DNA of 64,000 bases from Candidatus Woesebacteria bacterium GW2011_GWC1_42_9 (GTDB lineage: Bacteria; Patescibacteriota; Microgenomatia; UBA8517). Positions within the stretch are counted from its first letter, which is position 1; each line of letters starts with the position of its first letter. A model generated the notes under the pieces. It was not told the DNA's origin. It ran no database searches and worked only from the letters and a program-made list of their open reading frames with translations. This document shows, in pieces, positions 35,421 through 53,400 of this stretch. The stretch lies in assembly GCA_000995185.1 (NCBI GenBank), contig LCET01000002.1, positions 220-64,219 on the forward strand. Reading direction: 5' to 3'. A program made the position numbers and the translations under genes.

Positions 35421-35697
35421 CTTTACTTTTAGGTTTAAATTTCAGTAGGCGGAAAATACCTTTAGATGGTTTGTAAACCTTGTCGGGAAATCTTTCGACA
35501 AGTTTCCAGACGCATCCATTGACCGTTTTCGGATGAAAACTACGATCTGATGCCTCAATTTTTGAAAGTAGTTCTGACCAACGTAGACCCCCTGAATGTT
35601 CTTCGAGCAACTCAAATGCTTTTGCGTTTATACGTCCTGTAACCGTGGATTTGTCCATGTTTTGCAAAATAGAATAACACAATTGGCTAAATTGCAC
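35413..35697 (-). CDS. Small winged-helix protein (Mrr_N-like)
   Basis: AFELLEEHSGGLRWSELLSKIE...KGIFRL resembles N-terminal winged-helix domains of restriction proteins. Length is 94 aa. Confidence 0.35.
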   Translation of the reverse strand: MQFSQLCYSILQNMDKSTVTGRINAKAFELLEEHSGGLRWSELLSKIEASDRSFHPKTVNGCVWKLVERFPDKVYKPSKGIFRLLKFKPKSKDE

Positions 35698-35712
35698 CCA
35701 ATCATACTTAAC

Positions 35713-36210
35713 ATGGTAGGATATGCTTATTCTATGAGAAAAGGCTCAACGCTATTCTTAAAGTTTGCCATTTGTCTCATCGCAATCGGAGCCCTTGTAT
35801 GGCTGATTTGGTTTCCTCAAACTGAAGGAAGAGCTGTGAACTTAGATCTAGTCAGTATTTATAAAGATCCGGTTATTATCTATGGCTTTATCGCTTCGAC
35901 CCCATTTTTTTTTGGGCTATATCAGGCATTCAAATTATTAAACTTCATTGATGCGAATCATGCCTTTTCCCAAGGTACTGTTAATACACTCAAGAATATG
36001 AAGTTTGCTTCCTTCAGTTTCATTGGTTTTATTGCATTCGCAGAGTTTTACCTCCTCTTCTTTGTGCAGGGTGATGATAAAGCAGGGCCGATGGCGCTTG
36101 GAATTTATACTGCCTTCGCAACCGCTATTATCGCAACCGCTGCTGCTGTTTTTCAAAGACTTCTCCAAAATGCGGTAGACATAAAATCAGAAAATGATTT
36201 AACCGTATGA
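35713..36210 (+). CDS. DUF2975-like membrane protein
   Basis: Four-TM topology. It is followed by a YozG-type HTH fragment, and this pairing is typical of DUF2975 genes. The start was chosen at an internal Met to avoid overlap with the convergent gene. Confidence 0.5.
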   Translation: MVGYAYSMRKGSTLFLKFAICLIAIGALVWLIWFPQTEGRAVNLDLVSIYKDPVIIYGFIASTPFFFGLYQAFKLLNFIDANHAFSQGTVNTLKNMKFASFSFIGFIAFAEFYLLFFVQGDDKAGPMALGIYTAFATAIIATAAAVFQRLLQNAVDIKSENDLTV

Positions 36211-36365
36211 GGCACACCTATTGGCTGGATACCAATATGGCAAATCTTTCTATTTTGAAAAATGGAAAAGCGAGGGCTATCCGCTTCTCAACGCTCGAGG
36301 CAATTTGCAAAGCTCTAAATTGTCAACCTGGAGATATTTTGGAATACAAGAGAGGCCGAATTTAA
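36207..36365 (+). pseudogene. Truncated YozG/XRE-type HTH transcriptional regulator (helix 1-2 missing)
   Basis: It encodes ...NLSILKNGKARAIRFSTLEAICKALNCQPGDILEYKRG, the C-terminal half of a ~70-aa XRE HTH. An upstream MI-stop lies in a neighbouring frame, which suggests an internal deletion. Confidence 0.45.
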
Positions 36366-36529
36366 AAATAATTCCGTGTTCCTAGTTTCGCTCTGACCAC
36401 TGCTTTGTCTCGTGTTATCAAGGCATTTCAAAACCCAATCTGGGCAGAACAAGCGAGAGAAGGGCTGAAGGAAATTAAGAAGTTACAAGAAATGAAACTT
36501 GCCGTTACATAACTTCTTCCCCTAAATGG

Positions 36530-36646
36530 TTAGTTTGGTGTAGAACGACGATGGGGCCTTACTCTGTGCCCGTTTCTTAAATACCCTCTTACCGGGACTA
36601 TTTTTTGCCTTTGCCTACCATAAGTTGATGTCTTTGTCTTTGCCAT
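36530..36646 (-). CDS. 38-aa basic peptide translationally coupled to the nucleotidyltransferase gene
   Basis: An aggaggtg RBS overlaps the NTase stop codon, with the ATG 10 nt downstream. The peptide is MAKTKTSTYGRQRQKIVPVRGYLRNGHRVRPHRRSTPN, 9 of whose 38 residues are Arg. Confidence 0.4.
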   Translation of the reverse strand: MAKTKTSTYGRQRQKIVPVRGYLRNGHRVRPHRRSTPN

Positions 36647-36662
36647 AAATTCTTCACCTCCT

Positions 36663-38081
36663 TCAGTCGCCATTAATCCCAACATAAAATCGGCCAAAGC
36701 CGATACATGCTCCATTTTTAACAACGTAACATTCTATCCAATGCATGCCCGGATATTCAGTGTGCTCTTCTCGATAAGACGAGTTGACTTCGCAGAAATG
36801 AAATTCATTTCCTCTCCAACCGCCTATCCGAGCAATATCCAATGCTGGCATGCCATTATTCACAACCAACCAGCGTATCTCATCGTAATCTAAACCATCA
36901 ATCGCCGGGGTAAAAATTAAGAAATACTCCTTCCCTATGTAATCCCCAGAAAGCAAGGGTTTCGGACCGTTAATGGTCTGAAGGGCGTATCCGGGTAGAT
37001 TGTTTGGAATTCTCTTCCAGTTAGTCGAATTACGAATTTTGTCTCTTCGCTCAACCTGGCAGGTTAGTTTTACCTCCCTCCAATTTGAGACAAATGGCCA
37101 AGGAGATACTGATATTATCGACTCTCTGAGTAATGGATAAATTTCAGCCACACCATTTTTCTGCAACATCTCCTGCAGTTTTTTTAATGTTTTTGAGGCA
37201 TACTTTATAGCCAATGGCCTTTGGGTGGCGTCAGTGTCTTCATTCAAATAATCGTCCACAAAGACACTACTGTCGGCCATGTCTGGCAAAGACGATTTTG
37301 CCAACCAAGAAGTGGCATCTCCCAAAAAAAGATTGATTGCATCGTAAAAATCTAGGCTTCTATTCTGGGTAAACAATCCTGCAACTACTAGTTCTATATG
37401 AAATGATTTGAGCTCAAAGTTGGTCAAACCAGCATTACACGATTTTTTCCAAACCTTCGCGAACTTTACAGTCTTCCGATAACTCGGATTCTGATTTAAC
37501 CTCAATGATTGTTCTCTATAACCCTTAGGGTCAGACAAAACCCAATTAAGTTTTCCGTCATGGGATTTATAAATTTCCTCCCATTTGTTACGGCCAAGCT
37601 TTTGAATCTCGGGAACGAGATAAATGTCGTCGCCATACCTATTTTTTTTGCCTGACCTAACGGCCGGAACTAAATCTATCGAGAAAGTTTCTATTTTAGG
37701 AAATGTTATGTTTACGGAATGGGTTTGTGCTTCGACTTTTGCCTCTTTTCCAATCTTTTGGTATCCAGCCGTAAGCATCAACGCCAAACTCTCCAAAGGT
37801 TCTTTCACATCAAAGAGTATTGGCTGCCCTTGGCTTTTTGCTAACAATTCGCTACCCAAAATCTGAAACGATTCCGGCAAAACCCATATCACATCTAAGT
37901 CGTGAACGGGACTAACTGTAGTTTCCCTGCCAAATGACCCGCTCTGGAAAATTTCGTTGCCAGGTAAGATATCTTGAAGTTCCTTAAATCGCTCGGAAAT
38001 CTTGTCTCTTTCCTCTTGTGACGGAGATAGATATTTGCGGCAAAATTCCTCAAGACTGATATTAACTTCATTCTTTGTCAT
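36663..38081 (-). CDS. Nucleotidyltransferase of the SMODS / CD-NTase-like (Pol-beta fold) type with a C-terminal extension of about 200 aa
   Basis: GS-x9-DxD (QSGSFGRETTVSPVHDLDV) and a downstream h-D-h-h-P motif (FSIDLVPAV) are present. The N-terminal helical lead-in is typical of cGAS/DncV-like enzymes. The start was chosen at MTKNEV, giving a 14-nt overlap with the upstream gene. Confidence 0.6.
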   Translation of the reverse strand: MTKNEVNISLEEFCRKYLSPSQEERDKISERFKELQDILPGNEIFQSGSFGRETTVSPVHDLDVIWVLPESFQILGSELLAKSQGQPILFDVKEPLESLALMLTAGYQKIGKEAKVEAQTHSVNITFPKIETFSIDLVPAVRSGKKNRYGDDIYLVPEIQKLGRNKWEEIYKSHDGKLNWVLSDPKGYREQSLRLNQNPSYRKTVKFAKVWKKSCNAGLTNFELKSFHIELVVAGLFTQNRSLDFYDAINLFLGDATSWLAKSSLPDMADSSVFVDDYLNEDTDATQRPLAIKYASKTLKKLQEMLQKNGVAEIYPLLRESIISVSPWPFVSNWREVKLTCQVERRDKIRNSTNWKRIPNNLPGYALQTINGPKPLLSGDYIGKEYFLIFTPAIDGLDYDEIRWLVVNNGMPALDIARIGGWRGNEFHFCEVNSSYREEHTEYPGMHWIECYVVKNGACIGFGRFYVGINGD

Positions 38082-38613
38082 ATTTATATGAAGCCATAAT
38101 GGCAAAAAGGTCGCCAACCAGCCTGAGAGGCATACTCGATAACGCGTACCACTTGTAATCTTTAAGTTTCGCCCGATGTTCCTCATCAAGCGAATACCCC
38201 AGCTCAAATGTATAAACAACTAGGGGTCGGTTCGCTTTTTTAACCATATCCATAAACTCATCAAAATCATCCATGCCCTTGCGATACCCCAGGACAATAA
38301 TGCCAGCACCCTCAATGTCTTTAGGCTCAATTGAATGAAAATCTGTAATAATACCGTTTGAAACATCAAAAAAACCGGAACTTTTGAGAACGCCAAGTTC
38401 CCGTTTCATATCCTTACCAGACCCATCGTCCCTTTTCCCGCCGGAGGGACAGAAAATAAACACTTTACGACCGAGGTTCCGACCCAACCTAAAGAAGACT
38501 TTTATTGCTCTCCAAAAAATAATTATGAATCCAACGACGAAGATTACGAGGCCGAAAAGCCATTTGAGTAAATCCCAAATATCCAAGGCTGATGTAACTT
38601 TGTTAATATCCAT
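38068..38613 (-). CDS. Membrane-anchored protein with cytoplasmic Rossmann-like (TIR/DRT/STING-like?) domain
   Basis: An N-terminal TM helix (LFGLVIFVVGFIIIFW) is followed by KVFIFCPSGGKRDDG ... GIIVLGY ... RPLVVYTF, a beta-alpha pattern. It is the first gene of the operon with the NTase. Confidence 0.45.
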   Translation of the reverse strand: MDINKVTSALDIWDLLKWLFGLVIFVVGFIIIFWRAIKVFFRLGRNLGRKVFIFCPSGGKRDDGSGKDMKRELGVLKSSGFFDVSNGIITDFHSIEPKDIEGAGIIVLGYRKGMDDFDEFMDMVKKANRPLVVYTFELGYSLDEEHRAKLKDYKWYALSSMPLRLVGDLFAIMASYKYDKE

Positions 38614-38660
38614 CTCAATTTTGTCTTTAGCAAATTTTTTGTTTGCATCGGCAACACTGG

Positions 38661-38672
38661 TATGGTACCATA
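38661..38672. promoter_or_regulatory. Perfect 12-bp palindrome TATGGTACCATA in the lexA / NTase-operon divergent intergenic region (candidate operator)
   Basis: It lies 34 nt upstream of the lexA start and 48 nt upstream of the TM-protein start. It is the only perfect palindrome in the 92-nt spacer. Confidence 0.3.
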
Positions 38673-38705
38673 ATTGGTAGACGGATACAAGTAGACGCTT
38701 AATAA

Positions 38706-39323
38706 ATGTATTACAAACCCCTGTCAGAAAACCAAAATAAAGTTTTTGAAGCTATTTTGAGCAAAATTGCTTCAAACGAAGATGCCCCCAGCTTGCGGGA
38801 AATCCAGAAAATTACTGGGATTAAATCCTTGCGTGGGGTGACTCTGCAACTTGATACACTAGAAAAACTGGGCTTTATTGAAAGGAAAAAAGGTGTTAAA
38901 GGAATGTCTGTTAATGCAGCATTTCTAAAACCAAAAGAAAAGATATCTATCCCCTTTATGGCAAGTATTATCCCGGCCGGATATGCTTCTCCCGCAGAAG
39001 ATTATAGCGACCAAAAGATTGACGTTTCTCTCTCGGACACTAAAGGAATGAGAAATGTATTTGCTGTTAAAATAAAGGGCGAAAGTATGATAAACGCAGG
39101 AATAGAAGATGGTGATATTGCCATTATCTCCCCACAACAGGTTGCAAATAACGGTGACATTGTTGCAGCCCTATCTGAAGAGGGTGTTACTCTAAAAAGA
39201 TTCCGAATTGTAGACGACATTCCAATGCTTGTCCCTGCTAACCCAAAATACAAGCCAATTATTGGAGATTTCCAAATTCAAGGAAAGCTCATAAATTTAA
39301 TAAAAACAGAGCAAACCAACTAA
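38706..39323 (+). CDS. lexA: LexA repressor (S24 peptidase)
   Basis: N-terminal winged helix (LREIQKITGIKSLRGVTLQLDTLEKLGFIER). C-terminal S24 motifs (GESMINAGIEDGDIAII, catalytic Lys in TLKRF). Confidence 0.85.
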   Translation: MYYKPLSENQNKVFEAILSKIASNEDAPSLREIQKITGIKSLRGVTLQLDTLEKLGFIERKKGVKGMSVNAAFLKPKEKISIPFMASIIPAGYASPAEDYSDQKIDVSLSDTKGMRNVFAVKIKGESMINAGIEDGDIAIISPQQVANNGDIVAALSEEGVTLKRFRIVDDIPMLVPANPKYKPIIGDFQIQGKLINLIKTEQTN

Positions 39324-39529: not shown

Positions 39530-40123
39530 ATGAGCAACCTGATAACTCTCAAAGATTGGTATCAACTAGATTTCAAGCTGGATAAGCCACCAAAAGCGGT
39601 TATAAAAGGGGTTGCACAACTTGTAAGCGATTTGAAAACAAAAAAACTTATCAATAAATGGTTCTATTTATTTGAGGGTAAAACATTTCGTGTCCGATTC
39701 CACTCGGATAACCCAGACGAATTAAAAAAGAGAATTGGCGAGACTGCGCAAAAATTCGGCTTGACCCCTGATCCAGAACACCCCCTTGAACCTTACTCTG
39801 AAGGTAATGATATGTTTGCCAGCCCAGAAATGGTAGAAACCTTTGCCAATATGATGGCTGAGTTATCAGAATTAACCGTTCAGAGAGCCAACAACAAAAA
39901 CTTTTTCGAGAACTACAAATTAGTAGAAAGACTGTCTCACTGCATTTTTAACAATGTTTACGGTTCGGATACGGAAACATATTTCCTCCTAAAAAGGATG
40001 GGGGTTAATTTCCAATCCAAAGACAATCCAGAGCAGACAGTCATTGATGACAACCAACAATATGAACTAACCACTCCAATCACAATGACCGTGCCATCAA
40101 TAAAAATACCCAAAAAACCATGA
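39530..40123 (+). CDS. Hypothetical protein (197 aa)
   Basis: It forms a two-gene operon with the next ORF through a 4-nt overlap. A weak resemblance to the lantibiotic-dehydratase C-terminal / thiopeptide-type domain (WFYLFEGKTFRVRF, EPYSEG) could not be confirmed. Confidence 0.4.
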   Translation: MSNLITLKDWYQLDFKLDKPPKAVIKGVAQLVSDLKTKKLINKWFYLFEGKTFRVRFHSDNPDELKKRIGETAQKFGLTPDPEHPLEPYSEGNDMFASPEMVETFANMMAELSELTVQRANNKNFFENYKLVERLSHCIFNNVYGSDTETYFLLKRMGVNFQSKDNPEQTVIDDNQQYELTTPITMTVPSIKIPKKP

Positions 40124-40812
40124 CAAATAAATTAACTACTTTATCAAAAAAGGTATTTAGGAGTTTAGGAGAACTTTTCTCCAGCCCAGAGATTTCAGCC
40201 CTATGCCAGGCTCACCCTATCACTGCGGGAATCTCTGCTTACTTCGGCGGAGCTTATCAGCAAGAGCAGTTTGACAATATGGTCACTTTTATGCACCTGC
40301 TCCATTCAAGGCTAAAAAGTGTCGAAGAAGATAAGGTTGACAAAAAATTTCTTAACTCAAAGGATGGTAAAAGGATTATCGGTAAAATCTTCAGAAGCAT
40401 ATCCCGTGACAATAGAATTGAAAAAATTAGGGCAATGTCAAACCTAACAGTCAATCTTTATACTAAGTCAAAACTTGCCGTTGATGAAAGAGAGGTTTAT
40501 GTCGACATTTTGGACAATCTTAATATCCTACAACTTTCAATTCTCCAAAATGCAATTCTTAAAATAAAAGCACGAACGAGTAATCAGCACCGAGGGTTTG
40601 GCTGGGAGAAAATGCAGAAAGAATATGAGGCAAAAGGAGTCACTGCTGCTTTACTTCTTCAATCAATAAGAAGCCTGGAAAACAATGGCTTAGTTAATAA
40701 GAATACTGCCCAACTTCAAGAACAAGATCAAACGCACTTTGTGACAGTCTTTGGAGAGCAGTTTTATACATTTATCTCAGACACAAAAACTCAAAACAAA
40801 CAAGCTCTATAA
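40120..40812 (+). CDS. Hypothetical protein (230 aa)
   Basis: ORF only. No family was recognised. Confidence 0.4.
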   Translation: MTNKLTTLSKKVFRSLGELFSSPEISALCQAHPITAGISAYFGGAYQQEQFDNMVTFMHLLHSRLKSVEEDKVDKKFLNSKDGKRIIGKIFRSISRDNRIEKIRAMSNLTVNLYTKSKLAVDEREVYVDILDNLNILQLSILQNAILKIKARTSNQHRGFGWEKMQKEYEAKGVTAALLLQSIRSLENNGLVNKNTAQLQEQDQTHFVTVFGEQFYTFISDTKTQNKQAL

Positions 40813-40819
40813 AACGAAG

Positions 40820-41728
40820 CTAAGGCTGTCTTTTTACTAAAAACTGCTCTAATAGCTTTCTGTTTATAACCAGTGTGTTCATCATATCTTCCATAAGTGG
40901 AGCGGTGTCAGTTATTCCATTGGCTAAAAATCCCCCCTCCTTTTCTTTTCCTGACAGAAAACCAGAATGTAAAAAGGCTGATCTTAACTTACTATAAAGC
41001 CTCTTGACCATTTTTGTTGCCTGATCAAGATTTTTACCTGTTAGCAATTCCTTGATTAAATCAACGATTGCTTGCCTTTCACTTTTTGTTTGGTGATTTA
41101 CTCTTTTCTTACAAACTGAACAAAAAGGATGACCTTTACAAAAAACGGGGTTATTTGCAAGTTGGTTTATAGATGACAAAAATAAAGTCATGTAGAGAGT
41201 ATATTTCAGGTGAGGATTTGGTATTTCCATCAATTCTGACGCCCAGACAAAAGTGTTCAAAGCATTGTCAAACTTTTCAAAATCTTTCTTTGTTAATCCC
41301 CACATTAACTCCACACAACCTTTAACTCTAAAAATATGGTTATTCTCTGGAGCAGTTCCACTATAACTTTTCGAATCGTTGTGTTTGAGACTCCCAAAGT
41401 ATTTAAGAACATCTTTAATTTCTTTTGCTTTGTTTAATCGGACAGCACTGTATCGTGTGGGTAATCCAGTTTCTAAATAAATTAGGTTTAGCAATCGCTG
41501 AAGATTGGCAAAGGTATTCTGGGCGTTTAACTCCTTTGAAAGTTCCAAGTAAATATAAACAACTCCCAAACCACGGAGACTCGCATCGTTTTTACCAGCA
41601 AAAATTACAACTCTTTTCTGATCGGAAAGGGGCAAAGGCTTTAACTCGTAATAAGGATCGTCGTTATTATAAGTATTTACAGGCAATTTGAATAAATATC
41701 GCCATGACGCAGTCGTTTTTTTCATCAT
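40820..41728 (-). CDS. Hypothetical protein (302 aa) with C-x2-C / H-x-C cluster
   Basis: CKGHPFCSVCKKRVNH suggests a zinc-binding element. No family was recognised. Confidence 0.4.
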   Translation of the reverse strand: MMKKTTASWRYLFKLPVNTYNNDDPYYELKPLPLSDQKRVVIFAGKNDASLRGLGVVYIYLELSKELNAQNTFANLQRLLNLIYLETGLPTRYSAVRLNKAKEIKDVLKYFGSLKHNDSKSYSGTAPENNHIFRVKGCVELMWGLTKKDFEKFDNALNTFVWASELMEIPNPHLKYTLYMTLFLSSINQLANNPVFCKGHPFCSVCKKRVNHQTKSERQAIVDLIKELLTGKNLDQATKMVKRLYSKLRSAFLHSGFLSGKEKEGGFLANGITDTAPLMEDMMNTLVINRKLLEQFLVKRQP

Positions 41729-41970: not shown

Positions 41971-44556
41971 ATGACCAATCTTTACCAAAAATTAAAATTA
42001 GATGTCACTAACTGGAGACAACAAGGCTACCCCTCCTCCTATCCTGCTATTACCACCATCCTCCAGCATAATCAAAGCAACTTCCTAAGAAAGGCACAAT
42101 TTGAGGCACTGGAGACTTACTGGTATCTCAGATTGGTTAAAAACACCCCGAATATCTTTGACCTTTATCAAAGCTATTTCCCAGGGAAAACCCTCTTTGA
42201 AGCCTTTGGACTGAAACACTTAATTGAAAACTTGCCAGAAGATCTAATCACCCCAGAGTTTACCCAGGGAATCCTGAAAAAAATTGAAACAGACGATGCC
42301 TTTGTAAAGCAAAATAAATTAGAAGCGCTAAGGGAAACACTCACCCTTTCCTATCCCAGCTACATCCTGGCATTGGCAATGGGAGCGGGTAAGACAATCC
42401 TGATCGCTTCCATCATTGCTACCGAGTTTGCGATGGCTTTGGAATATCAAGAGGAAGATGGTATTTTTATCAAAAACGCCCTGGTATTTGCGCCTGGAAA
42501 AACCATTTTAGGTGCTTTGAGGGAAATCTCAGATACTCCCTATAACAAGATACTTCCCCCTCGTTTTTACAAATCCTTTATCACCAATGTTAAATTCACC
42601 TACACCAGAGATGGTGAGAAAGATATTCCTGTTATTCGAGAGAGTTCCTTTAATGTCATCGTCACCAACACTGAGAAAATACGACTTCAAAAGAACAGCA
42701 TCCCCAAATCCTTCCTGTCTGGGCAGTTGAGGCTGGGCATTGAAGAAGCAAAGGAGCTGGTGGCTAATTTGAGGCTGCAAACCATCACTTCACTACCTCA
42801 CTTGGCAGTATTCTCGGATGAAGCGCACCACACCTACGGGCAAAAGCTGGCAAGCGATCTTAAAAGGGTCAGGCAAACCATCAACTACATTGCCGAGGAA
42901 ACTAACCTTCTGGTGGTCGTTAATACCACAGGCACGCCATACTTCCAAAGACAGCTTCTGCGGGATGTCATTTACTGGTATGGGCTGTCCCAGGGCATTG
43001 AGGACGGCATCCTCAAAGAGGTTAGGGGCAACATCATGGCTTATCCGAAGGTTTCTGAGAAAGACTTTGTTATCGATATTGTCAAAGATTTCTTTCAGGA
43101 ATACAAAGATGTCCGAGTTAATAACGGCGAATACGCAAAGTTGGCAATTTACTTCCCCCAGGTAGCAGATTTAGAGAAAGCCAAACCCATTGTCGAGCAA
43201 ACTCTTATTTCGTTGAAGCTCGACCCTTCAGTTGTCCTGCCAGTGCATAACAAATCAACTGACGAGATCAAAGACCTCTTTGATAATCGAATCAACGATC
43301 CTAAACTACCTTACAGGGTCTTCCTGTTAGTTAACAAAGGCACTGAGGGGTGGAACTGCCTGTCCTTATTTGCCACAGCCCTGGCAAGGAAACTTACTTC
43401 AAGCAATAACTTTGTTTTACAAGCTGCCAGCCGATGTTTAAGACAAGTCAACGGCAACACCAAAAAAGCCAAGATTTATCTCTCAAAAGATAATGTCTCC
43501 ATTCTTGATCGGCAGTTGCAAGAAACCTTTGGCGAGGGGCTGGACGATCTCAATAGGGTTGCAGCTGATATTCTATCAATCAAGGTAACCCTCAGAAAGA
43601 TTGAACTTGAACCACTACTGATCAAAAAGCTCATCCAAAAGATAGTCCCAGAAGACTTGAAAGCTGCAGAAAGTTTAAGAATCGATAAACCAGGCAAACA
43701 AGCGGTCAAATCCTTTGAAAAGACCATTTACTCCATGTCCAAAGCCCAGAGAAAAGGGGTGCTGGTTGAAGTGGGAACTAAAAAGGGAAGTGTAACAGAC
43801 AGGAAAATCGACCTGTTCCAAGCTGCCGTAGTTTTGGCTCATGCTTACCGCTTAGACTCGCTAAAAACTTATAAACTGCTTCAAGGCTTATATCCAGACG
43901 GAGAAATCGGGGCGTTTGAACTGGAGCTTATCCGCTCGCAAATAGAAAAACAAACCATGCGCTATAAAGTGGTTAACGAAACCATCGAAGAAGCATTGGC
44001 TCTTATCAAACAAAAAGGGTTTGAAGAAGAAACTGTTGACGGCAAAACCTCGTATGTGACCCATATCAGGGTTAACAAAACCTCTCTGGATAAATATGTG
44101 CTGGAGCTGAAAGACTACAGAGCAAAAGCTGGGCAGCTACCGCTCTTTGGCTTCCATTATGACCCCTACAACTTTGACTCTGGAGACGAGCGGGAGTTTT
44201 TTGAGAGAATGCTTACTAAACTTGGAGAAGACCCAGATAATGTTGAGGACATTTATTACACAGGTGCAATCAATGACCCTGCCAAAACCGATTTTATCTT
44301 TGAGTATAAAGACGATAAAGGAGACTGGCACAGTTATACACCCGACTTTTTAATTCGCAAGAAAGACGGCAAGTCCTTAATCGTGGAGGTCAAAGCGCCA
44401 AAATACAGGATTAAAGAGGCTGAAAAAGAGATGCAACAGCTGGAAGCGATAAATCCTGATAAAATAAAGTATGAACTCCTGCTCTTAGAGGAAGGAGAGT
44501 CAGTATTTGGTAAAGTCGCCCCAGTTTTTAACTGGATTTACCAAAACCAAAAATAA
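41971..44556 (+). CDS. Type III-like restriction endonuclease subunit (SF2 DEAH helicase + C-terminal PD-(D/E)xK nuclease)
   Basis: Motif I (AMGAGKTILIA), motif II (VFSDEAHH), and at the C-terminus YTPDFLI...SLIVEVKA, a PD..ExK arrangement. Confidence 0.7.
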   Translation: MTNLYQKLKLDVTNWRQQGYPSSYPAITTILQHNQSNFLRKAQFEALETYWYLRLVKNTPNIFDLYQSYFPGKTLFEAFGLKHLIENLPEDLITPEFTQGILKKIETDDAFVKQNKLEALRETLTLSYPSYILALAMGAGKTILIASIIATEFAMALEYQEEDGIFIKNALVFAPGKTILGALREISDTPYNKILPPRFYKSFITNVKFTYTRDGEKDIPVIRESSFNVIVTNTEKIRLQKNSIPKSFLSGQLRLGIEEAKELVANLRLQTITSLPHLAVFSDEAHHTYGQKLASDLKRVRQTINYIAEETNLLVVVNTTGTPYFQRQLLRDVIYWYGLSQGIEDGILKEVRGNIMAYPKVSEKDFVIDIVKDFFQEYKDVRVNNGEYAKLAIYFPQVADLEKAKPIVEQTLISLKLDPSVVLPVHNKSTDEIKDLFDNRINDPKLPYRVFLLVNKGTEGWNCLSLFATALARKLTSSNNFVLQAASRCLRQVNGNTKKAKIYLSKDNVSILDRQLQETFGEGLDDLNRVAADILSIKVTLRKIELEPLLIKKLIQKIVPEDLKAAESLRIDKPGKQAVKSFEKTIYSMSKAQRKGVLVEVGTKKGSVTDRKIDLFQAAVVLAHAYRLDSLKTYKLLQGLYPDGEIGAFELELIRSQIEKQTMRYKVVNETIEEALALIKQKGFEEETVDGKTSYVTHIRVNKTSLDKYVLELKDYRAKAGQLPLFGFHYDPYNFDSGDEREFFERMLTKLGEDPDNVEDIYYTGAINDPAKTDFIFEYKDDKGDWHSYTPDFLIRKKDGKSLIVEVKAPKYRIKEAEKEMQQLEAINPDKIKYELLLLEEGESVFGKVAPVFNWIYQNQK

Positions 44557-44558
44557 AT

Positions 44559-45413
44559 ATGATCACAAAACAATTTCTTGAAACATATCCACTGCTTAGA
44601 AAATACCCCATTACATTCGATAAACTAAGCCACAGTCAGTGGGGAACAAAAGGTGCTATTTGTAATCTTCCTAAACCAGCACTTAATTTATTCTGCAAAA
44701 AGTGCCAGAGCATGCAGACATTTAATATGGAAAATGACTTTGAACATTTTGCAGTCGACTCACCTGTAAGGCATTCTCCTGTAGGAAAAATCTTTGAAGT
44801 GAGATATCTGTGTGCTGGTTGCGGGCAATACCGACATACTTTTTATATCGAATTTGGTGTTGATAGAGCGCCAAAGGGAGATGCGAGAACATTTAGTGGC
44901 TGGATTCGCAAAATAGGTCAGTTGCCTCCGTGGGAAATTGATATTGATAAAAACATTGAAAAGGCATTGGGAGACGATAGTGTGCTTTACAAAAAAGGCT
45001 TAATCTGTGAGTCTCAAAGTTATGGAATAGGCTCATATGCTTATTTCAGGCGTATCACAGAAAACATTATCGACGAACTGTTAAATTCAATTTCTGATTT
45101 AATTGACGAGGGAGATAAAGAAAAATATGAACAAGCGCTGGAGAAAGTAAAAAAAACCAGAGTGACAGAAGAAAAAATTGAGTTAGTGCAAGACTTATTA
45201 CCATTATCACTACAACCCAATGGGCTTAATCCTTTGAAATCACTTCACTCTGCTTTAAGCGCTGGCATACACAATAAAACTGATGAAGAATGTTTAGAAT
45301 TAGCTGAGACAATAAAAGAAGTTTTAATCTACTTACTGGAAGAAATCAAAAATCGAAAAAATAGAGCAAAAGAATTTACAGAAAGAATGAAAAGATTACT
45401 TAAACAAAAATAA
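44559..45413 (+). CDS. Hypothetical Zn-ribbon protein encoded between the restriction and methyltransferase genes
   Basis: Four Cys (CNLPKP...CKKC ... CAGCGQ). C-terminal helical region. 3-nt gaps on both sides indicate co-translation with its neighbours. Confidence 0.45.
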   Translation: MITKQFLETYPLLRKYPITFDKLSHSQWGTKGAICNLPKPALNLFCKKCQSMQTFNMENDFEHFAVDSPVRHSPVGKIFEVRYLCAGCGQYRHTFYIEFGVDRAPKGDARTFSGWIRKIGQLPPWEIDIDKNIEKALGDDSVLYKKGLICESQSYGIGSYAYFRRITENIIDELLNSISDLIDEGDKEKYEQALEKVKKTRVTEEKIELVQDLLPLSLQPNGLNPLKSLHSALSAGIHNKTDEECLELAETIKEVLIYLLEEIKNRKNRAKEFTERMKRLLKQK

Positions 45414-45415
45414 AC

Positions 45416-47413
45416 ATGATAAATAAAAAAATAACCAAATCTCTCTCTGATGAGATCAAGATTAAAGCTAAGATAAGCAAGATAAAGATTGAAACACCAA
45501 AGGGTAGACCTCTGCTCCATTGGGTTAATAAACACCCGTTAGAATATGTCACAGGCTTCCCGACACAGCTAACAGAAGTCTTCGACCCTCAGAAGAAAGA
45601 CAAATTCCCAGAAACTCCTAAATACAACGAGCTTGAAAAGAACTGGCACAATCTCTTATTTCATGGTGACAACAAAGAAGTTTTAGCCACACTCCTCGAA
45701 CAAGGATTTAGAGGCAAGGTTGACCTTATTTATATCGATCCTCCGTTTGCCAGCAACAAGGACTACATGAGGAAAGTTGAGCTGCGGGGACTGAAAGATT
45801 TGGGCAGGATCGAGGAAGACAGCGAATCGATCATCCAGCAAACAATGTATGAAGATATTTGGAAAAGGGACGAATACTTCCAGTTCATGTATGAGAGGTT
45901 GATTTTACTGAAGGAATTGCTGGCAGAAACGGGCAGCATTTATGTTCACCTTGACTATCGAATGGTGCATTATATCAAGGCGTTCATGGACGAGATCTTC
46001 GGCGAAGACAATTTCAAAAACGAAATTACATGGAGAAGACAAATTCCAAGAGGTATGAAAGCACATGCCACCTTCCTGCCCTACAGCGCTGAATACATCC
46101 TGCTTTATACCAAAGGAGGGGGTGCAATATGGAATCAACCAATTAAGATAAACAAACTCTCGATAAAAGAGGCAGAGAAAAAATACATGAAAGATGAAAA
46201 AGGATTTTTCAGGACTTCAGACCCTGGAACTTTCTCCTTTGAGGGTCTTTTTGATCTTTATAAAAGGGGGAAATTATACGCACCCTACAATGGCAAGATT
46301 ATCGTGGACACAAAGAGTAAGAGAATTTATACCCAGAAAGGGAATCTGGGCATTAAGTATTACAGAAAAAGAGAAGGTAATTTTATTGTTGAAGAAACCC
46401 CAGTCGATAACATCTGGGAAGACATCCCAGGTTTGGGAGTAACACCGTCAGAGTGGTTAGGTTATCAGACTCAAAAGCCAGAGGCATTACTCGAACGAAT
46501 TATCAAAGCCTCTTCTGACTCAAATCATTTAGTTTTGGATTGTTTTATGGGGTCTGGAACAACATGTGCGGTGGCTCAAAAGTTAGGCAGGCGGTGGATT
46601 GGGGTTGATGTTAATAAAGGGGCAATTCAAGTTACCAGCAAGAGACTACAAAAAATCTCAAAAGACAAAAAAGAGGCAAAACACCCCACCTTTGCAGTTT
46701 ATAAAGTTAATAACTACAACCTGAGAATCTTAAAAACAGAGGCTAAGGAACTGGCTATCCAGCAATATGGAATTACTAAGGTCAAAACGGACACTTTCTT
46801 TGACGGTTTGCGGGATAGTGGTGAACTGGTCAAGGTTATAGATTTCAATCACCCCTTAACGCTACTTGACCTACAGCTAATCGTTGACGAGCTTAATAAA
46901 CGACCAGATGAAGACAGAGATGTTGTGGTTATCTCGCTGGGTCGAGAAACAAAGGTTGATGCTTGGATTGAGGAATGGAATAAAAAACAGCCCTATAAAG
47001 ACACCAGAAACAAGAAACGCATGCGTCAGTTTATTGTCTTCGACCTGAAAGACAAAAACTTTGTGAGTTACGAGCCATCAAAAGCAGATGTAGAAATTAA
47101 GCGGGTAGGCAAAGGCAAAGTAAAGATTAAAATTGTATCCTTTATCTCCCCCACGATCATTAAGCGCCTGGAGCTTGAACCAGGACTCTTGCAGAAGAAA
47201 ATCCCAGATTTCAGGTCGATGATCGATGTGGTGCTGGTTGACACGGATTACGACGGTGAAGTATTTAAGATTGGTTTCTCCGATGTCCCAGAAAAACAGA
47301 ACGATTTAGTTAAGGGTGAATACGAGCTTGAAATAAGCGAAAAGCCAACCAAAGTGGCAGTCAAAGTCATTGACATGTTGGGAGAAGAAGTCATGGTTAC
47401 CAAAGAGGTGTAA
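45416..47413 (+). CDS. DNA methyltransferase, beta-class amino-MTase (type III Mod-like)
   Basis: Motif IV (DLIYIDPPF) precedes motif I (LDCFMGSGTT), which is the beta-class order. Length is 665 aa. Confidence 0.8.
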   Translation: MINKKITKSLSDEIKIKAKISKIKIETPKGRPLLHWVNKHPLEYVTGFPTQLTEVFDPQKKDKFPETPKYNELEKNWHNLLFHGDNKEVLATLLEQGFRGKVDLIYIDPPFASNKDYMRKVELRGLKDLGRIEEDSESIIQQTMYEDIWKRDEYFQFMYERLILLKELLAETGSIYVHLDYRMVHYIKAFMDEIFGEDNFKNEITWRRQIPRGMKAHATFLPYSAEYILLYTKGGGAIWNQPIKINKLSIKEAEKKYMKDEKGFFRTSDPGTFSFEGLFDLYKRGKLYAPYNGKIIVDTKSKRIYTQKGNLGIKYYRKREGNFIVEETPVDNIWEDIPGLGVTPSEWLGYQTQKPEALLERIIKASSDSNHLVLDCFMGSGTTCAVAQKLGRRWIGVDVNKGAIQVTSKRLQKISKDKKEAKHPTFAVYKVNNYNLRILKTEAKELAIQQYGITKVKTDTFFDGLRDSGELVKVIDFNHPLTLLDLQLIVDELNKRPDEDRDVVVISLGRETKVDAWIEEWNKKQPYKDTRNKKRMRQFIVFDLKDKNFVSYEPSKADVEIKRVGKGKVKIKIVSFISPTIIKRLELEPGLLQKKIPDFRSMIDVVLVDTDYDGEVFKIGFSDVPEKQNDLVKGEYELEISEKPTKVAVKVIDMLGEEVMVTKEV

Positions 47414-53081: not shown

Positions 53082-53400
53082 ATTTAGGTGTAGGTGGCGA
53101 TGTTAGCTTCCTTTGGGGAGTAAAGTCAAATCCAACAAAAAAAGCTCCCAGCCAGCGATAATCCTTGCGGACTACCTGCAGCCCTTTCGAGCTACAACCT
53201 TCGCAGATGCTCTGACTGAGAGCTTTCTTCTGCGAAGGTTTTCTTAGCCATGCCCCAAAGGGTTTAGGCTTTATGTTTCTATTTTATCAATTTATCAATT
53301 TTCCTGCCATACCCCTTAGTTTTGGCTTAAAAGACTCGTCTTTGGTAAAATTATCAGTAAAGTTACTTTAAGGGGTGCGGTTAAATTACCCGATATTACA

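Follow-up and report, generated by a model that had tools for sequence, protein, structure and literature searches.

A probable Type I CBASS operon with a 1TM-family effector and a divergent lexA neighbour in Candidatus Woesebacteria

Organisation of the locus

We analysed a stretch of 64,000 nt (from here on "the window") of contig LCET01000002.1 from Candidatus Woesebacteria bacterium GW2011_GWC1_42_9, a bacterium of the candidate phyla radiation (CPR). At positions 36530-38613 the window contains three minus-strand open reading frames (ORFs) of 181, 472 and 38 aa, arranged as an operon next to a divergent lexA gene. With high confidence, we read the locus as a canonical Type I cyclic oligonucleotide-based antiphage signalling system (CBASS), in which the 472-aa protein is the cyclase and the 181-aa protein the effector.

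The effector gene comes first (38613..38068, minus strand; defined by its ORF and by PADLOC models) and is followed by the cyclase gene, which begins with ATG (38081..36663, minus strand). The two genes overlap by 14 nt, counted from the cyclase ATG to the last letter of the effector TGA (ATGACAAAGAATGA). The gene for the 38-aa basic peptide, MAKTKTSTYGRQRQKIVPVRGYLRNGHRVRPHRRSTPN, closes the operon (36646..36530, minus strand; recognised by its ORF, its coupling through a ribosome binding site (RBS) and its ratio of non-synonymous to synonymous substitution rates, dN/dS). Its RBS, AGGAGG, overlaps the cyclase TGA and stands 10 nt ahead of the peptide ATG. A first-pass annotation, made by a model from the letters of the window, had described the three ORFs at these coordinates, the 14-nt overlap and the AGGAGG over the cyclase stop codon, and we could confirm all of them on the minus strand. 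On the plus strand the LexA repressor gene (38706..39323) points away from the operon. The 92 nt between them (38614..38705, no strand) form the putative shared divergent promoter and operator region, where we have candidate operators only. A promoter and terminator scan of 36300-38900 gave nothing that exceeded the shuffled expectation.

The cyclase is a CD-NTase with an AGS-C domain

Two Pfam families match the 472-aa protein above their gathering cut-offs: SMODS (PF18144) at residues 7-149, with 37.8 bits (cut-off 26.5), and AGS_C (PF18134) at residues 398-470, with 48.6 bits and E = 1e-12 (cut-off 26.7). PADLOC matches the protein with its Cyclase model PDLC00785 (E = 1.4e-64) and also with 22 other models for cyclases. 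We aligned 22 homologues that have both SMODS and AGS_C, with identities down to 27%, and in this alignment the residues G48, S49, D61, D63 and D136 are invariant. They make up the motif G48-S49-x11-D61-x-D63 (37893..37940, minus strand) and the third catalytic aspartate, D136, within SIDLVPAV (nt 37674-37676, minus strand). The first-pass annotation had reported a Pol-beta nucleotidyltransferase (NTase) signature here and had made its proposal depend on conservation of the DxD residues. The GS, DxD and SIDLVPAV elements are indeed real and invariant, D61 and D63 included, but the spacing is GS-x11-DxD and not x9.

The AlphaFold2 (AF2) model of the cyclase (pLDDT 89.5, pTM 0.89) consists of an NTase core with a helical lobe that extends to about residue 320 (residues ~1-320, nt 37122-38081, minus strand), followed by the beta-rich AGS-C domain (residues ~330-472, nt 36666-37094, minus strand; defined by Pfam and AF2), for which the model shows 9 beta strands (residues 330-469). 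A Foldseek search of this model against the PDB returned CdnC, CdnD, cGAS, CdnG, CdnB and DncV as the best matches; MiD51 is also among the top 50, and the TM-score (target) reaches 0.73. A sequence profile search against the PDB found CdnD and CdnC at E ~1e-14. The Pfam, PADLOC and Foldseek results agree with the earlier assignment of the protein to the SMODS or cGAS/DncV-like nucleotidyltransferases (CD-NTases). Judged by its sequence and its predicted fold, it is such an enzyme, with an intact GS...DxD...D active site. As another candidate we considered a minimal nucleotidyltransferase of the AbiEii/MNT type, and rejected it: Pfam, PADLOC and NCBIfam gave no such match, and the fold matches were CD-NTases and cGAS.

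The part of the protein behind the catalytic core had been described as about 200 residues without a recognisable family. An extra domain does exist, but it comprises about 150 residues (~325-472) and its family is AGS_C. The same domain is carried by all of the 17 closest cyclase homologues. AGS-C is described as an ~18-kDa immunoglobulin (Ig)-like domain; ~40% of the cyclases in Type I systems are reported to carry it as a fusion, and it has been linked to the range and specificity for phages (10.1101/2023.05.21.541620). Given the Pfam match and these published fusions, the "unexplained" C-terminus is an already described feature. In the NCBI database, an identical 472-aa protein (P0001) is recorded as a "hypothetical protein" of Candidatus Woesebacteria bacterium GW2011_GWA1_39_11, also from the CPR.

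The effector belongs to the 1TM family

The 181-aa protein matches two PADLOC models, PDLC01057 ("C3a59, trans-membrane", E = 5.8e-25) and PDLC00664 (the CBASS "Effector, 1TM", E = 2.8e-8). These profile matches place it in the CBASS '1TM effector' family. Among 61 diverse aligned members of the family, 61 match PDLC01057 and 55 match PDLC00664. Furthermore, 37 of the 61 match Mem_04 (PDLC01158), a membrane protein of type III CRISPR systems and a possible divergent CARF protein, the best E being 1e-9; the window effector itself does not reach E = 1e-3 against this model. The Mem_04 matches indicate another cyclic-oligonucleotide context for the effector family. Like the effector family, Mem_04 proteins combine N-terminal transmembrane (TM) helices with a Rossmann-like globular domain, but they are described with 2 TM helices and sit in CRISPR type III operons.

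The first-pass annotation had treated this protein as something new. However, 1TM is an established category that the two PADLOC models already cover, and a recognised class of CBASS effectors (10.1101/2022.04.27.489752). As far as that paper outlines the class, which it cites as a category of Millman et al. 2020, the window effector shares with it the single N-terminal TM helix, the small cytoplasmic domain, the position beside a cyclase and the matches to hidden Markov models (HMMs). A profile search with the effector returned 835 homologues, and every one with a listed source name is a "hypothetical protein". Literature searches found nothing relevant on the PADLOC model name 'C3a59' and no experimental or structural study of the CBASS 1TM family. 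For this uncharacterised family a confident structural model is now available.

This AF2 model, calculated from an alignment of 131 sequences (pLDDT 86, pTM 0.75), has a single long N-terminal helix (residues 3-47) with a hydrophobic TM core at about residues 17-35. Its cytoplasmic part (residues 50-175) is predicted to be a five-stranded flavodoxin-like alpha/beta domain, a generic fold. It had been guessed that the soluble domain would have a flavodoxin, TIR or 2-deoxyribosyltransferase (NDT)-like fold, and the model agrees with this guess. The identity as a TIR protein, on the other hand, found no support: a Pfam scan of the effector gave no family at E <= 0.1, TIR included, and the catalytic Glu of TIR NADases is not conserved. 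In the 131 sequences no Glu at all is invariant or near-invariant. The invariant residues of the family are S79, Y134, R164, L165 and D168; R42, R49, K125, R154 and R162 are near-invariant, and F82 is also conserved. A search of the PDB with the effector family sequences returned spurious matches only. Because of the conserved basic residues and the lack of a conserved Glu, we infer that the soluble domain fits a sensor of a nucleotide signal better than a hydrolase of the TIR or NDT type. We lean towards the view that the effector is a ligand-gated membrane disruptor.

The effector-cyclase pair is a conserved module

For comparison we fetched 130 loci (labelled L001-L130), each of which encodes a relative of the window cyclase, and assigned membership of the effector family in these loci with an iterated HMM. 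An ORF ends at the cyclase start in 115 of the 130 loci, and in 108 of these 115 it is a member of the 1TM family. The order of the genes, effector and then cyclase, had been taken for an oddity of the locus, and these numbers make it the rule. The same order is also found in the founding capV-dncV operon. Even the 14-nt overlap between effector and cyclase recurs, in 59 of 92 loci. The module is found in Patescibacteria, Flavobacteria, Acidobacteriota, Gammaproteobacteria, Verrucomicrobia and Spirochaetia as well as on one Woesearchaeota contig. The 1TM effectors are partners of cyclases with AGS-C (63 of 71) and of cyclases that do not have it (36 of 47). We also see that the effector can be swapped. 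For example, a DUF6602 protein with a restriction-endonuclease-like motif replaces the 1TM protein at L015 (5266-5988), L071 (563-1285) and L089 (5261-5992), and at these three loci a LexA-like gene again lies upstream.

Among the neighbours of the operon between ~29 and 52 kb of the window, neither PADLOC nor Pfam gave a match to Cap2/Cap3 (E1/E2/JAB) or to HORMA/TRIP13. A Type I CBASS is defined as a cyclase and an effector only (PMC9122588). Since the Cap2, Cap3 and HORMA genes are lacking, the published definition places the locus in Type I, and the statement that it matches no described type of CBASS does not hold. The more general proposal of the first-pass annotation, a nucleotide-signalling defence system of the CBASS kind with a CD-NTase and a co-encoded membrane effector, is supported by Pfam, PADLOC and the linkage of the two genes. 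What the locus adds is an example from the CPR (Woesebacteria); as a standard Type I CBASS, it leaves the knowledge of nucleotide-based immunity unchanged.

Known Type I operons with CD-NTase-AGS-C cyclases (PspCdnB06-Cap15, EcCdnF04-SLATT6 and VcCdnG09-Cap5; 10.1101/2023.05.21.541620) have, like the window, two genes, no Cap2, Cap3 or HORMA, and a cyclase that ends in the ~18-kDa Ig-like AGS-C. They differ from it in that the window cyclase is distant in sequence (NCBIfam matches below the cut-off, best PDB match at E ~1e-14), that its effector is a 1TM protein rather than Cap15, SLATT or Cap5, and that its host is a CPR bacterium. The flavodoxin-like model of the window effector is also unlike Cap15, which reportedly (in work of Duncan-Lowey et al. 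from 2021) has a beta-barrel. Cap15 is also reported to be no longer toxic once its TM part is deleted.

The 38-aa peptide

The peptide has a single syntenic homologue, at L051, where the cyclase is 74% identical to that of the window. Between the two peptide genes there are 15 synonymous and 6 non-synonymous differences, which corresponds to a dN/dS of ~0.07; the RBS is also kept in L051, and the nucleotide similarity between the window and L051 stops exactly at the stop codon of the peptide, at 36530. By this signature of selection the ORF is a real gene. In the remaining 129 of the 130 CBASS loci, however, neither tblastn nor the family HMM, applied to six-frame translations, found the peptide, and downstream of the operon the other close relatives have no small basic ORF that resembles it. 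Thus, of the three-gene co-occurrence that had been put forward, the effector-cyclase pair is kept (in 108 of 115 loci) and the peptide is not (1 of 130).

An exhaustive phmmer search returned 15 small homologues of the peptide (L131-L145), with the family consensus MAKTKSS..GKQ.KKIVPV.GY.K.DGTKV..HRRSTPN. The peptide matches PHROG 21154, a family of unknown function; this is its sole hit, as scans of Pfam, PADLOC and NCBIfam gave no family match. At L132 a homologue follows IetA/IetS, and at L137 one follows a NACHT protein. In L139-L142 the peptide comes after a pair of HTH_19 and Peptidase_M78 proteins (capH/capP-like in PADLOC), and its gene is at the extreme end of a prophage, past those for the holin and the endolysin. 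In IMG/VR, 91 viral contigs encode the peptide by one count and 80 by another. Their commonest cassette consists of a helix-turn-helix (HTH) protein (HTH_19), a Peptidase_M78 protein (again capH/capP-like), a second small basic peptide of 36 or 48 aa and then the peptide of the 38-aa family, and it frequently lies where a prophage ends. Temperate phages of Lacticaseibacillus also carry it, unannotated. Of the viral copies, the closest (84% identity) is encoded by an inovirus-like contig (L146, 1-5732), together with a Zot-family ATPase. The gene downstream of the peptide is not homologous between L051 and L146. The latter also encodes a small coat-like TM protein and a 563-aa protein, and may represent a filamentous phage that infects CPR bacteria.

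We consider it likely that the peptide is not a core component of the CBASS. The first-pass annotation had counted it as a part of the system; with one occurrence among the 130 related loci and a family of phage-associated small genes, we concluded that it is, as far as these distributions indicate, a passenger of phage origin that a single narrow lineage of Woesebacteria acquired at the 3' end of the operon. The peptide defines a highly conserved family of small proteins, which is largely unannotated among the few records that we inspected.

Linkage of the operon to LexA

The protein encoded across the intergenic region scores 122.5 bits against the lexA model TIGR00498 (cut-off 110.95) and has the Pfam domains LexA_DNA_bind, a winged HTH (wHTH), and Peptidase_S24. 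Its translation retains the Ala-Gly cleavage site (IPAGY), the Ser (GESM) and the Lys (TLKRF). We asked how often such a gene accompanies the module. A LexA-like gene lies immediately upstream in 30 of the 130 loci, which corresponds to 22 distinct proteins (clusters at 90% identity), and 20 of 71 informative distinct loci are flanked in this way. These neighbours are mostly divergent, some are on the same strand, and they occur in CPR and in non-CPR loci (including an Acidobacteriota chromosome) as well as next to loci with DUF6602 effectors. Nine out of ten that we tested score above the LexA cut-off. When the nearest upstream neighbour is counted over 67 distinct loci, Peptidase_S24 is the commonest (17), followed by type I restriction-modification (RM) specificity subunits (11) and CapP-like M78 proteins (5). 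Our literature search found no paper that joins CBASS, LexA and S24.

In several loci the lexA gene shows further peculiarities. It forms an in-frame fusion with an N6/N4 DNA methyltransferase that has an SPPY motif, directly beside the CBASS of L073 (3575-5437, minus strand), L072 (2963-5464) and L130 (3102-5015); in L003 (3877-5384) the methyltransferase is a separate gene after lexA. Furthermore, a small unrelated ORF of ~60-100 aa stands between lexA and the effector gene in L008, L069, L029, L130 and L001/L052/L053. From reading the sequences, we take those of L008 and L069 to be DUF2188-like and those of L029 and L130 to be YegP/DUF1508-like.

The intergenic region contains two candidate operators. 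One is a perfect 12-nt palindrome, TATGGTACCATA, at 38661-38672, which does not reach significance over the whole window when up to 2 mismatches are allowed. The other is the direct repeat GTCTAC-N8-GTCTAC at 38677-38696, which is unique in the window (0.02 expected); L051 also has two copies of GTCTAC. A repeat search at seed 6 found no inverted repeat in the lexA/CBASS intergenic region of the window.

A comparison with the known regulators of CBASS is instructive here. CapH/CapP are encoded upstream of CBASS on the opposite strand and share its promoter (Lau et al., 10.1101/2022.04.27.489752). Like LexA here, CapH/CapP is a repressor system on the opposite strand that is inactivated by proteolysis on a DNA-damage signal, and genes for M78 (CapP-like) proteins take the same position as LexA in 5 of the 67 loci of the window CBASS family. 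A tblastn search had found no CapH/CapP-like genes of the L139 type in the CBASS loci; Pfam later gave these 5 upstream M78 genes. The two systems differ in their parts: CapH/CapP consists of two proteins, an HTH protein and a Zn-metallopeptidase, whereas LexA of the window joins a wHTH and a self-cleaving S24 domain in one polypeptide. The WYL repressors CapW/BrxR of CBASS and BREX (PMC9122588) are likewise divergently encoded and bind the shared CBASS promoter. They have a ligand-binding WYL domain in place of the self-cleaving S24 of LexA, and both family and trigger are unrelated.

That LexA takes the position of CapH/CapP suggests, by analogy, a DNA-damage-inducible expression of the operon. 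We regard the prediction that LexA controls the CBASS operon as evenly balanced. If it is true, the linkage would widen DNA-damage-coupled expression of CBASS from CapH/CapP to the classical SOS repressor. More speculatively, LexA-type self-cleaving repressors may serve this CBASS clade specifically and form a third class of regulators, next to CapW and CapH/CapP; the CBASS itself would then be a module for suicide or defence that the SOS response triggers in CPR, Acidobacteria and others. The same tentative proposal would place the co-transcribed peptide in a widespread, unannotated family of phage micro-proteins that are the cargo of regulator modules responsive to DNA damage (LexA in the window, HTH and M78 in prophages) and that act in defence or counter-defence.

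Proposed mechanism

On our reading, which we draw from sequence and models, the cyclase would make a cyclic oligonucleotide upon infection, with AGS-C as the candidate module that senses or tunes the phage cue. The product would bind to the basic conserved face of the flavodoxin-like cytoplasmic domain of the effector. Oligomerisation of the single-TM effector, driven by the ligand, could then damage the membrane and abort the infection. The operon would be transcribed from the promoter region shared with the divergent lexA. Because of this shared region, LexA probably represses the operon, and its self-cleavage, which is RecA-dependent, would lead to induction after DNA damage. The peptide would be expressed along with the operon.

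Alternative interpretations

Taken together, we find the overall account of a Type I CBASS with a 1TM effector, LexA control and a passenger peptide very likely, and there are several points that weigh against it. All of the support is computational and comes from sequence and predicted structure. The NCBIfam equivalogs CBASS_cyclase_a/_b are matched far below their cut-offs (80.9 against 200), for which reason we assign the cyclase to a distant CD-NTase clade. The peptide is coupled to the cyclase and is more conserved than the CBASS genes themselves (dN of 0.07 against 0.17-0.18), which our account leaves unexplained. Concerning LexA, the known LexA-box consensuses (GAAC-N4-GTTC, CTGT-N8-ACAG, GTTC-N7-GTTC, GTAC-type and others) are absent from the 23 lexA/CBASS promoter regions that we looked at. 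The order lexA, CBASS, topoisomerase IB is syntenic within the Microgenomates (L002/L054), so that the adjacency partly reflects shared ancestry and some of the LexA-adjacent cases are not independent. The LexA of the window may also simply be the housekeeping copy.

The last two points lead to the most serious of the alternatives, namely that LexA is adjacent by accident, as a housekeeping SOS repressor beside a variable region with no regulatory link to it. The score above the equivalog cut-off, the shared order in L002/L054 that makes several CPR cases non-independent, the operator that was not found and a second lexA that was not seen within the 64-kb window are all in keeping with this idea. 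Yet 22 distinct LexA-like proteins and 20 of 71 informative loci, in both orientations, in non-CPR hosts and beside DUF6602 effectors, are difficult to reconcile with chance, as random placement would be expected to give well under 1%. No other family is found upstream as often as the S24 peptidases (17 of 67), and the next among regulators, the CapP-like M78, reach only 5. Moreover, if a housekeeping LexA regulates its own gene from the 92 nt that both promoters share, one would expect it to act on the divergent promoter as well. We therefore see an accidental adjacency as possible but doubtful. The peptide could be a working third component in this lineage, acquired from a phage and acting as a modulator or antidote of the effector or as a nucleic-acid-binding coupler to DNA damage. 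It is co-transcribed with the cyclase gene and coupled to it, it has a dN/dS of 0.07 and is better conserved than its neighbours, and elsewhere its family directly follows regulator pairs of the DNA-damage type (HTH and M78) and adjoins IetA/IetS and NACHT genes. Such a role is nevertheless unlikely, given that ~100 other distinct systems of this CBASS family do without the peptide; it also occurs in phage genomes that lack a CBASS, and selection therefore probably acts on a function unrelated to CBASS.

As for the effector, it might instead be a membrane-tethered NADase of the TIR kind or a nucleotide hydrolase similar to DNPH1 or the 2-deoxyribosyltransferases, which would kill by depletion of nucleotides and not by damage to the membrane. 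The predicted fold is shared with such enzymes, but with no TIR match in Pfam and no conserved Glu in the family we hold this to be decidedly unlikely. Finally, the first-pass annotation raised the prospect of a novel three-component nucleotide-signalling system outside the known CBASS types, with new parts that evolved together, namely the TM protein, the extension at the C-terminus of the cyclase and the basic peptide. In favour of such a system, the three genes follow each other closely with coupled translation, and the peptide is under strong purifying selection and kept with its RBS in L051. On the other hand, both large proteins match existing CBASS models, AGS-C is a common and described fusion, and the peptide is missing from 129 of the 130 related loci, including relatives with 67% and 58% cyclase identity; it is also seen in unrelated contexts, such as prophages, the inovirus-like contig, or beside Iet or NACHT genes. 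The comparative data appear to have largely refuted this view already, and we consider it extremely improbable. The reading as a Type I CBASS with a 1TM effector and a passenger peptide is the one that we keep.

Neighbouring genes

Approximately 3 kb from the CBASS operon lies an RM-like module (41971-47413, plus strand). It encodes an 861-aa ResIII helicase with a TnsA-like endonuclease domain, a 284-aa protein of unknown family and a 665-aa N6/N4 DNA methyltransferase, the last of which PADLOC identifies as a type II/III MTase. Together, the CBASS operon and this module are a small defence island. RM genes are also frequent neighbours in the related CBASS loci. In Flavobacteria-type loci (L030, L031, L032, L035, L037, L044, L049, L109 and L118), the effector gene is immediately preceded, in the same orientation and often with an overlap, by the gene for a type I RM specificity subunit (Methylase_S, 11 of the 67 loci), so that the CBASS pair is part of an RM operon, at its end.

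Beyond lexA there are three genes for which we could not find a confident family, at 39530-40812 (plus strand) and 40820-41728 (minus strand), with products of 197, 230 and 302 aa. The 197-aa protein has a weak match to Lant_dehydr_C/thiopeptide-type families and the 230-aa protein a weak match to HxlR. None of the three has a homologue in any of the 130 related loci; possibly they are another uncharacterised cargo of the island.

On the other side of the operon, and convergent with it, overlapping genes at 35596-36365 (plus strand) encode a DUF2975 membrane protein and a short HTH_26 regulator of the Cro/C1 type. An apparent kinship of the HTH_26 protein to L042 (82% identity) turned out to be merely a 114-nt stretch of conserved HTH, and we dropped it. 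Further away, at 53157-53270 (minus strand), the window contains a match to the Rfam LOOT RNA (RF03000) with 76.3 bits, the gathering score being 46.4.

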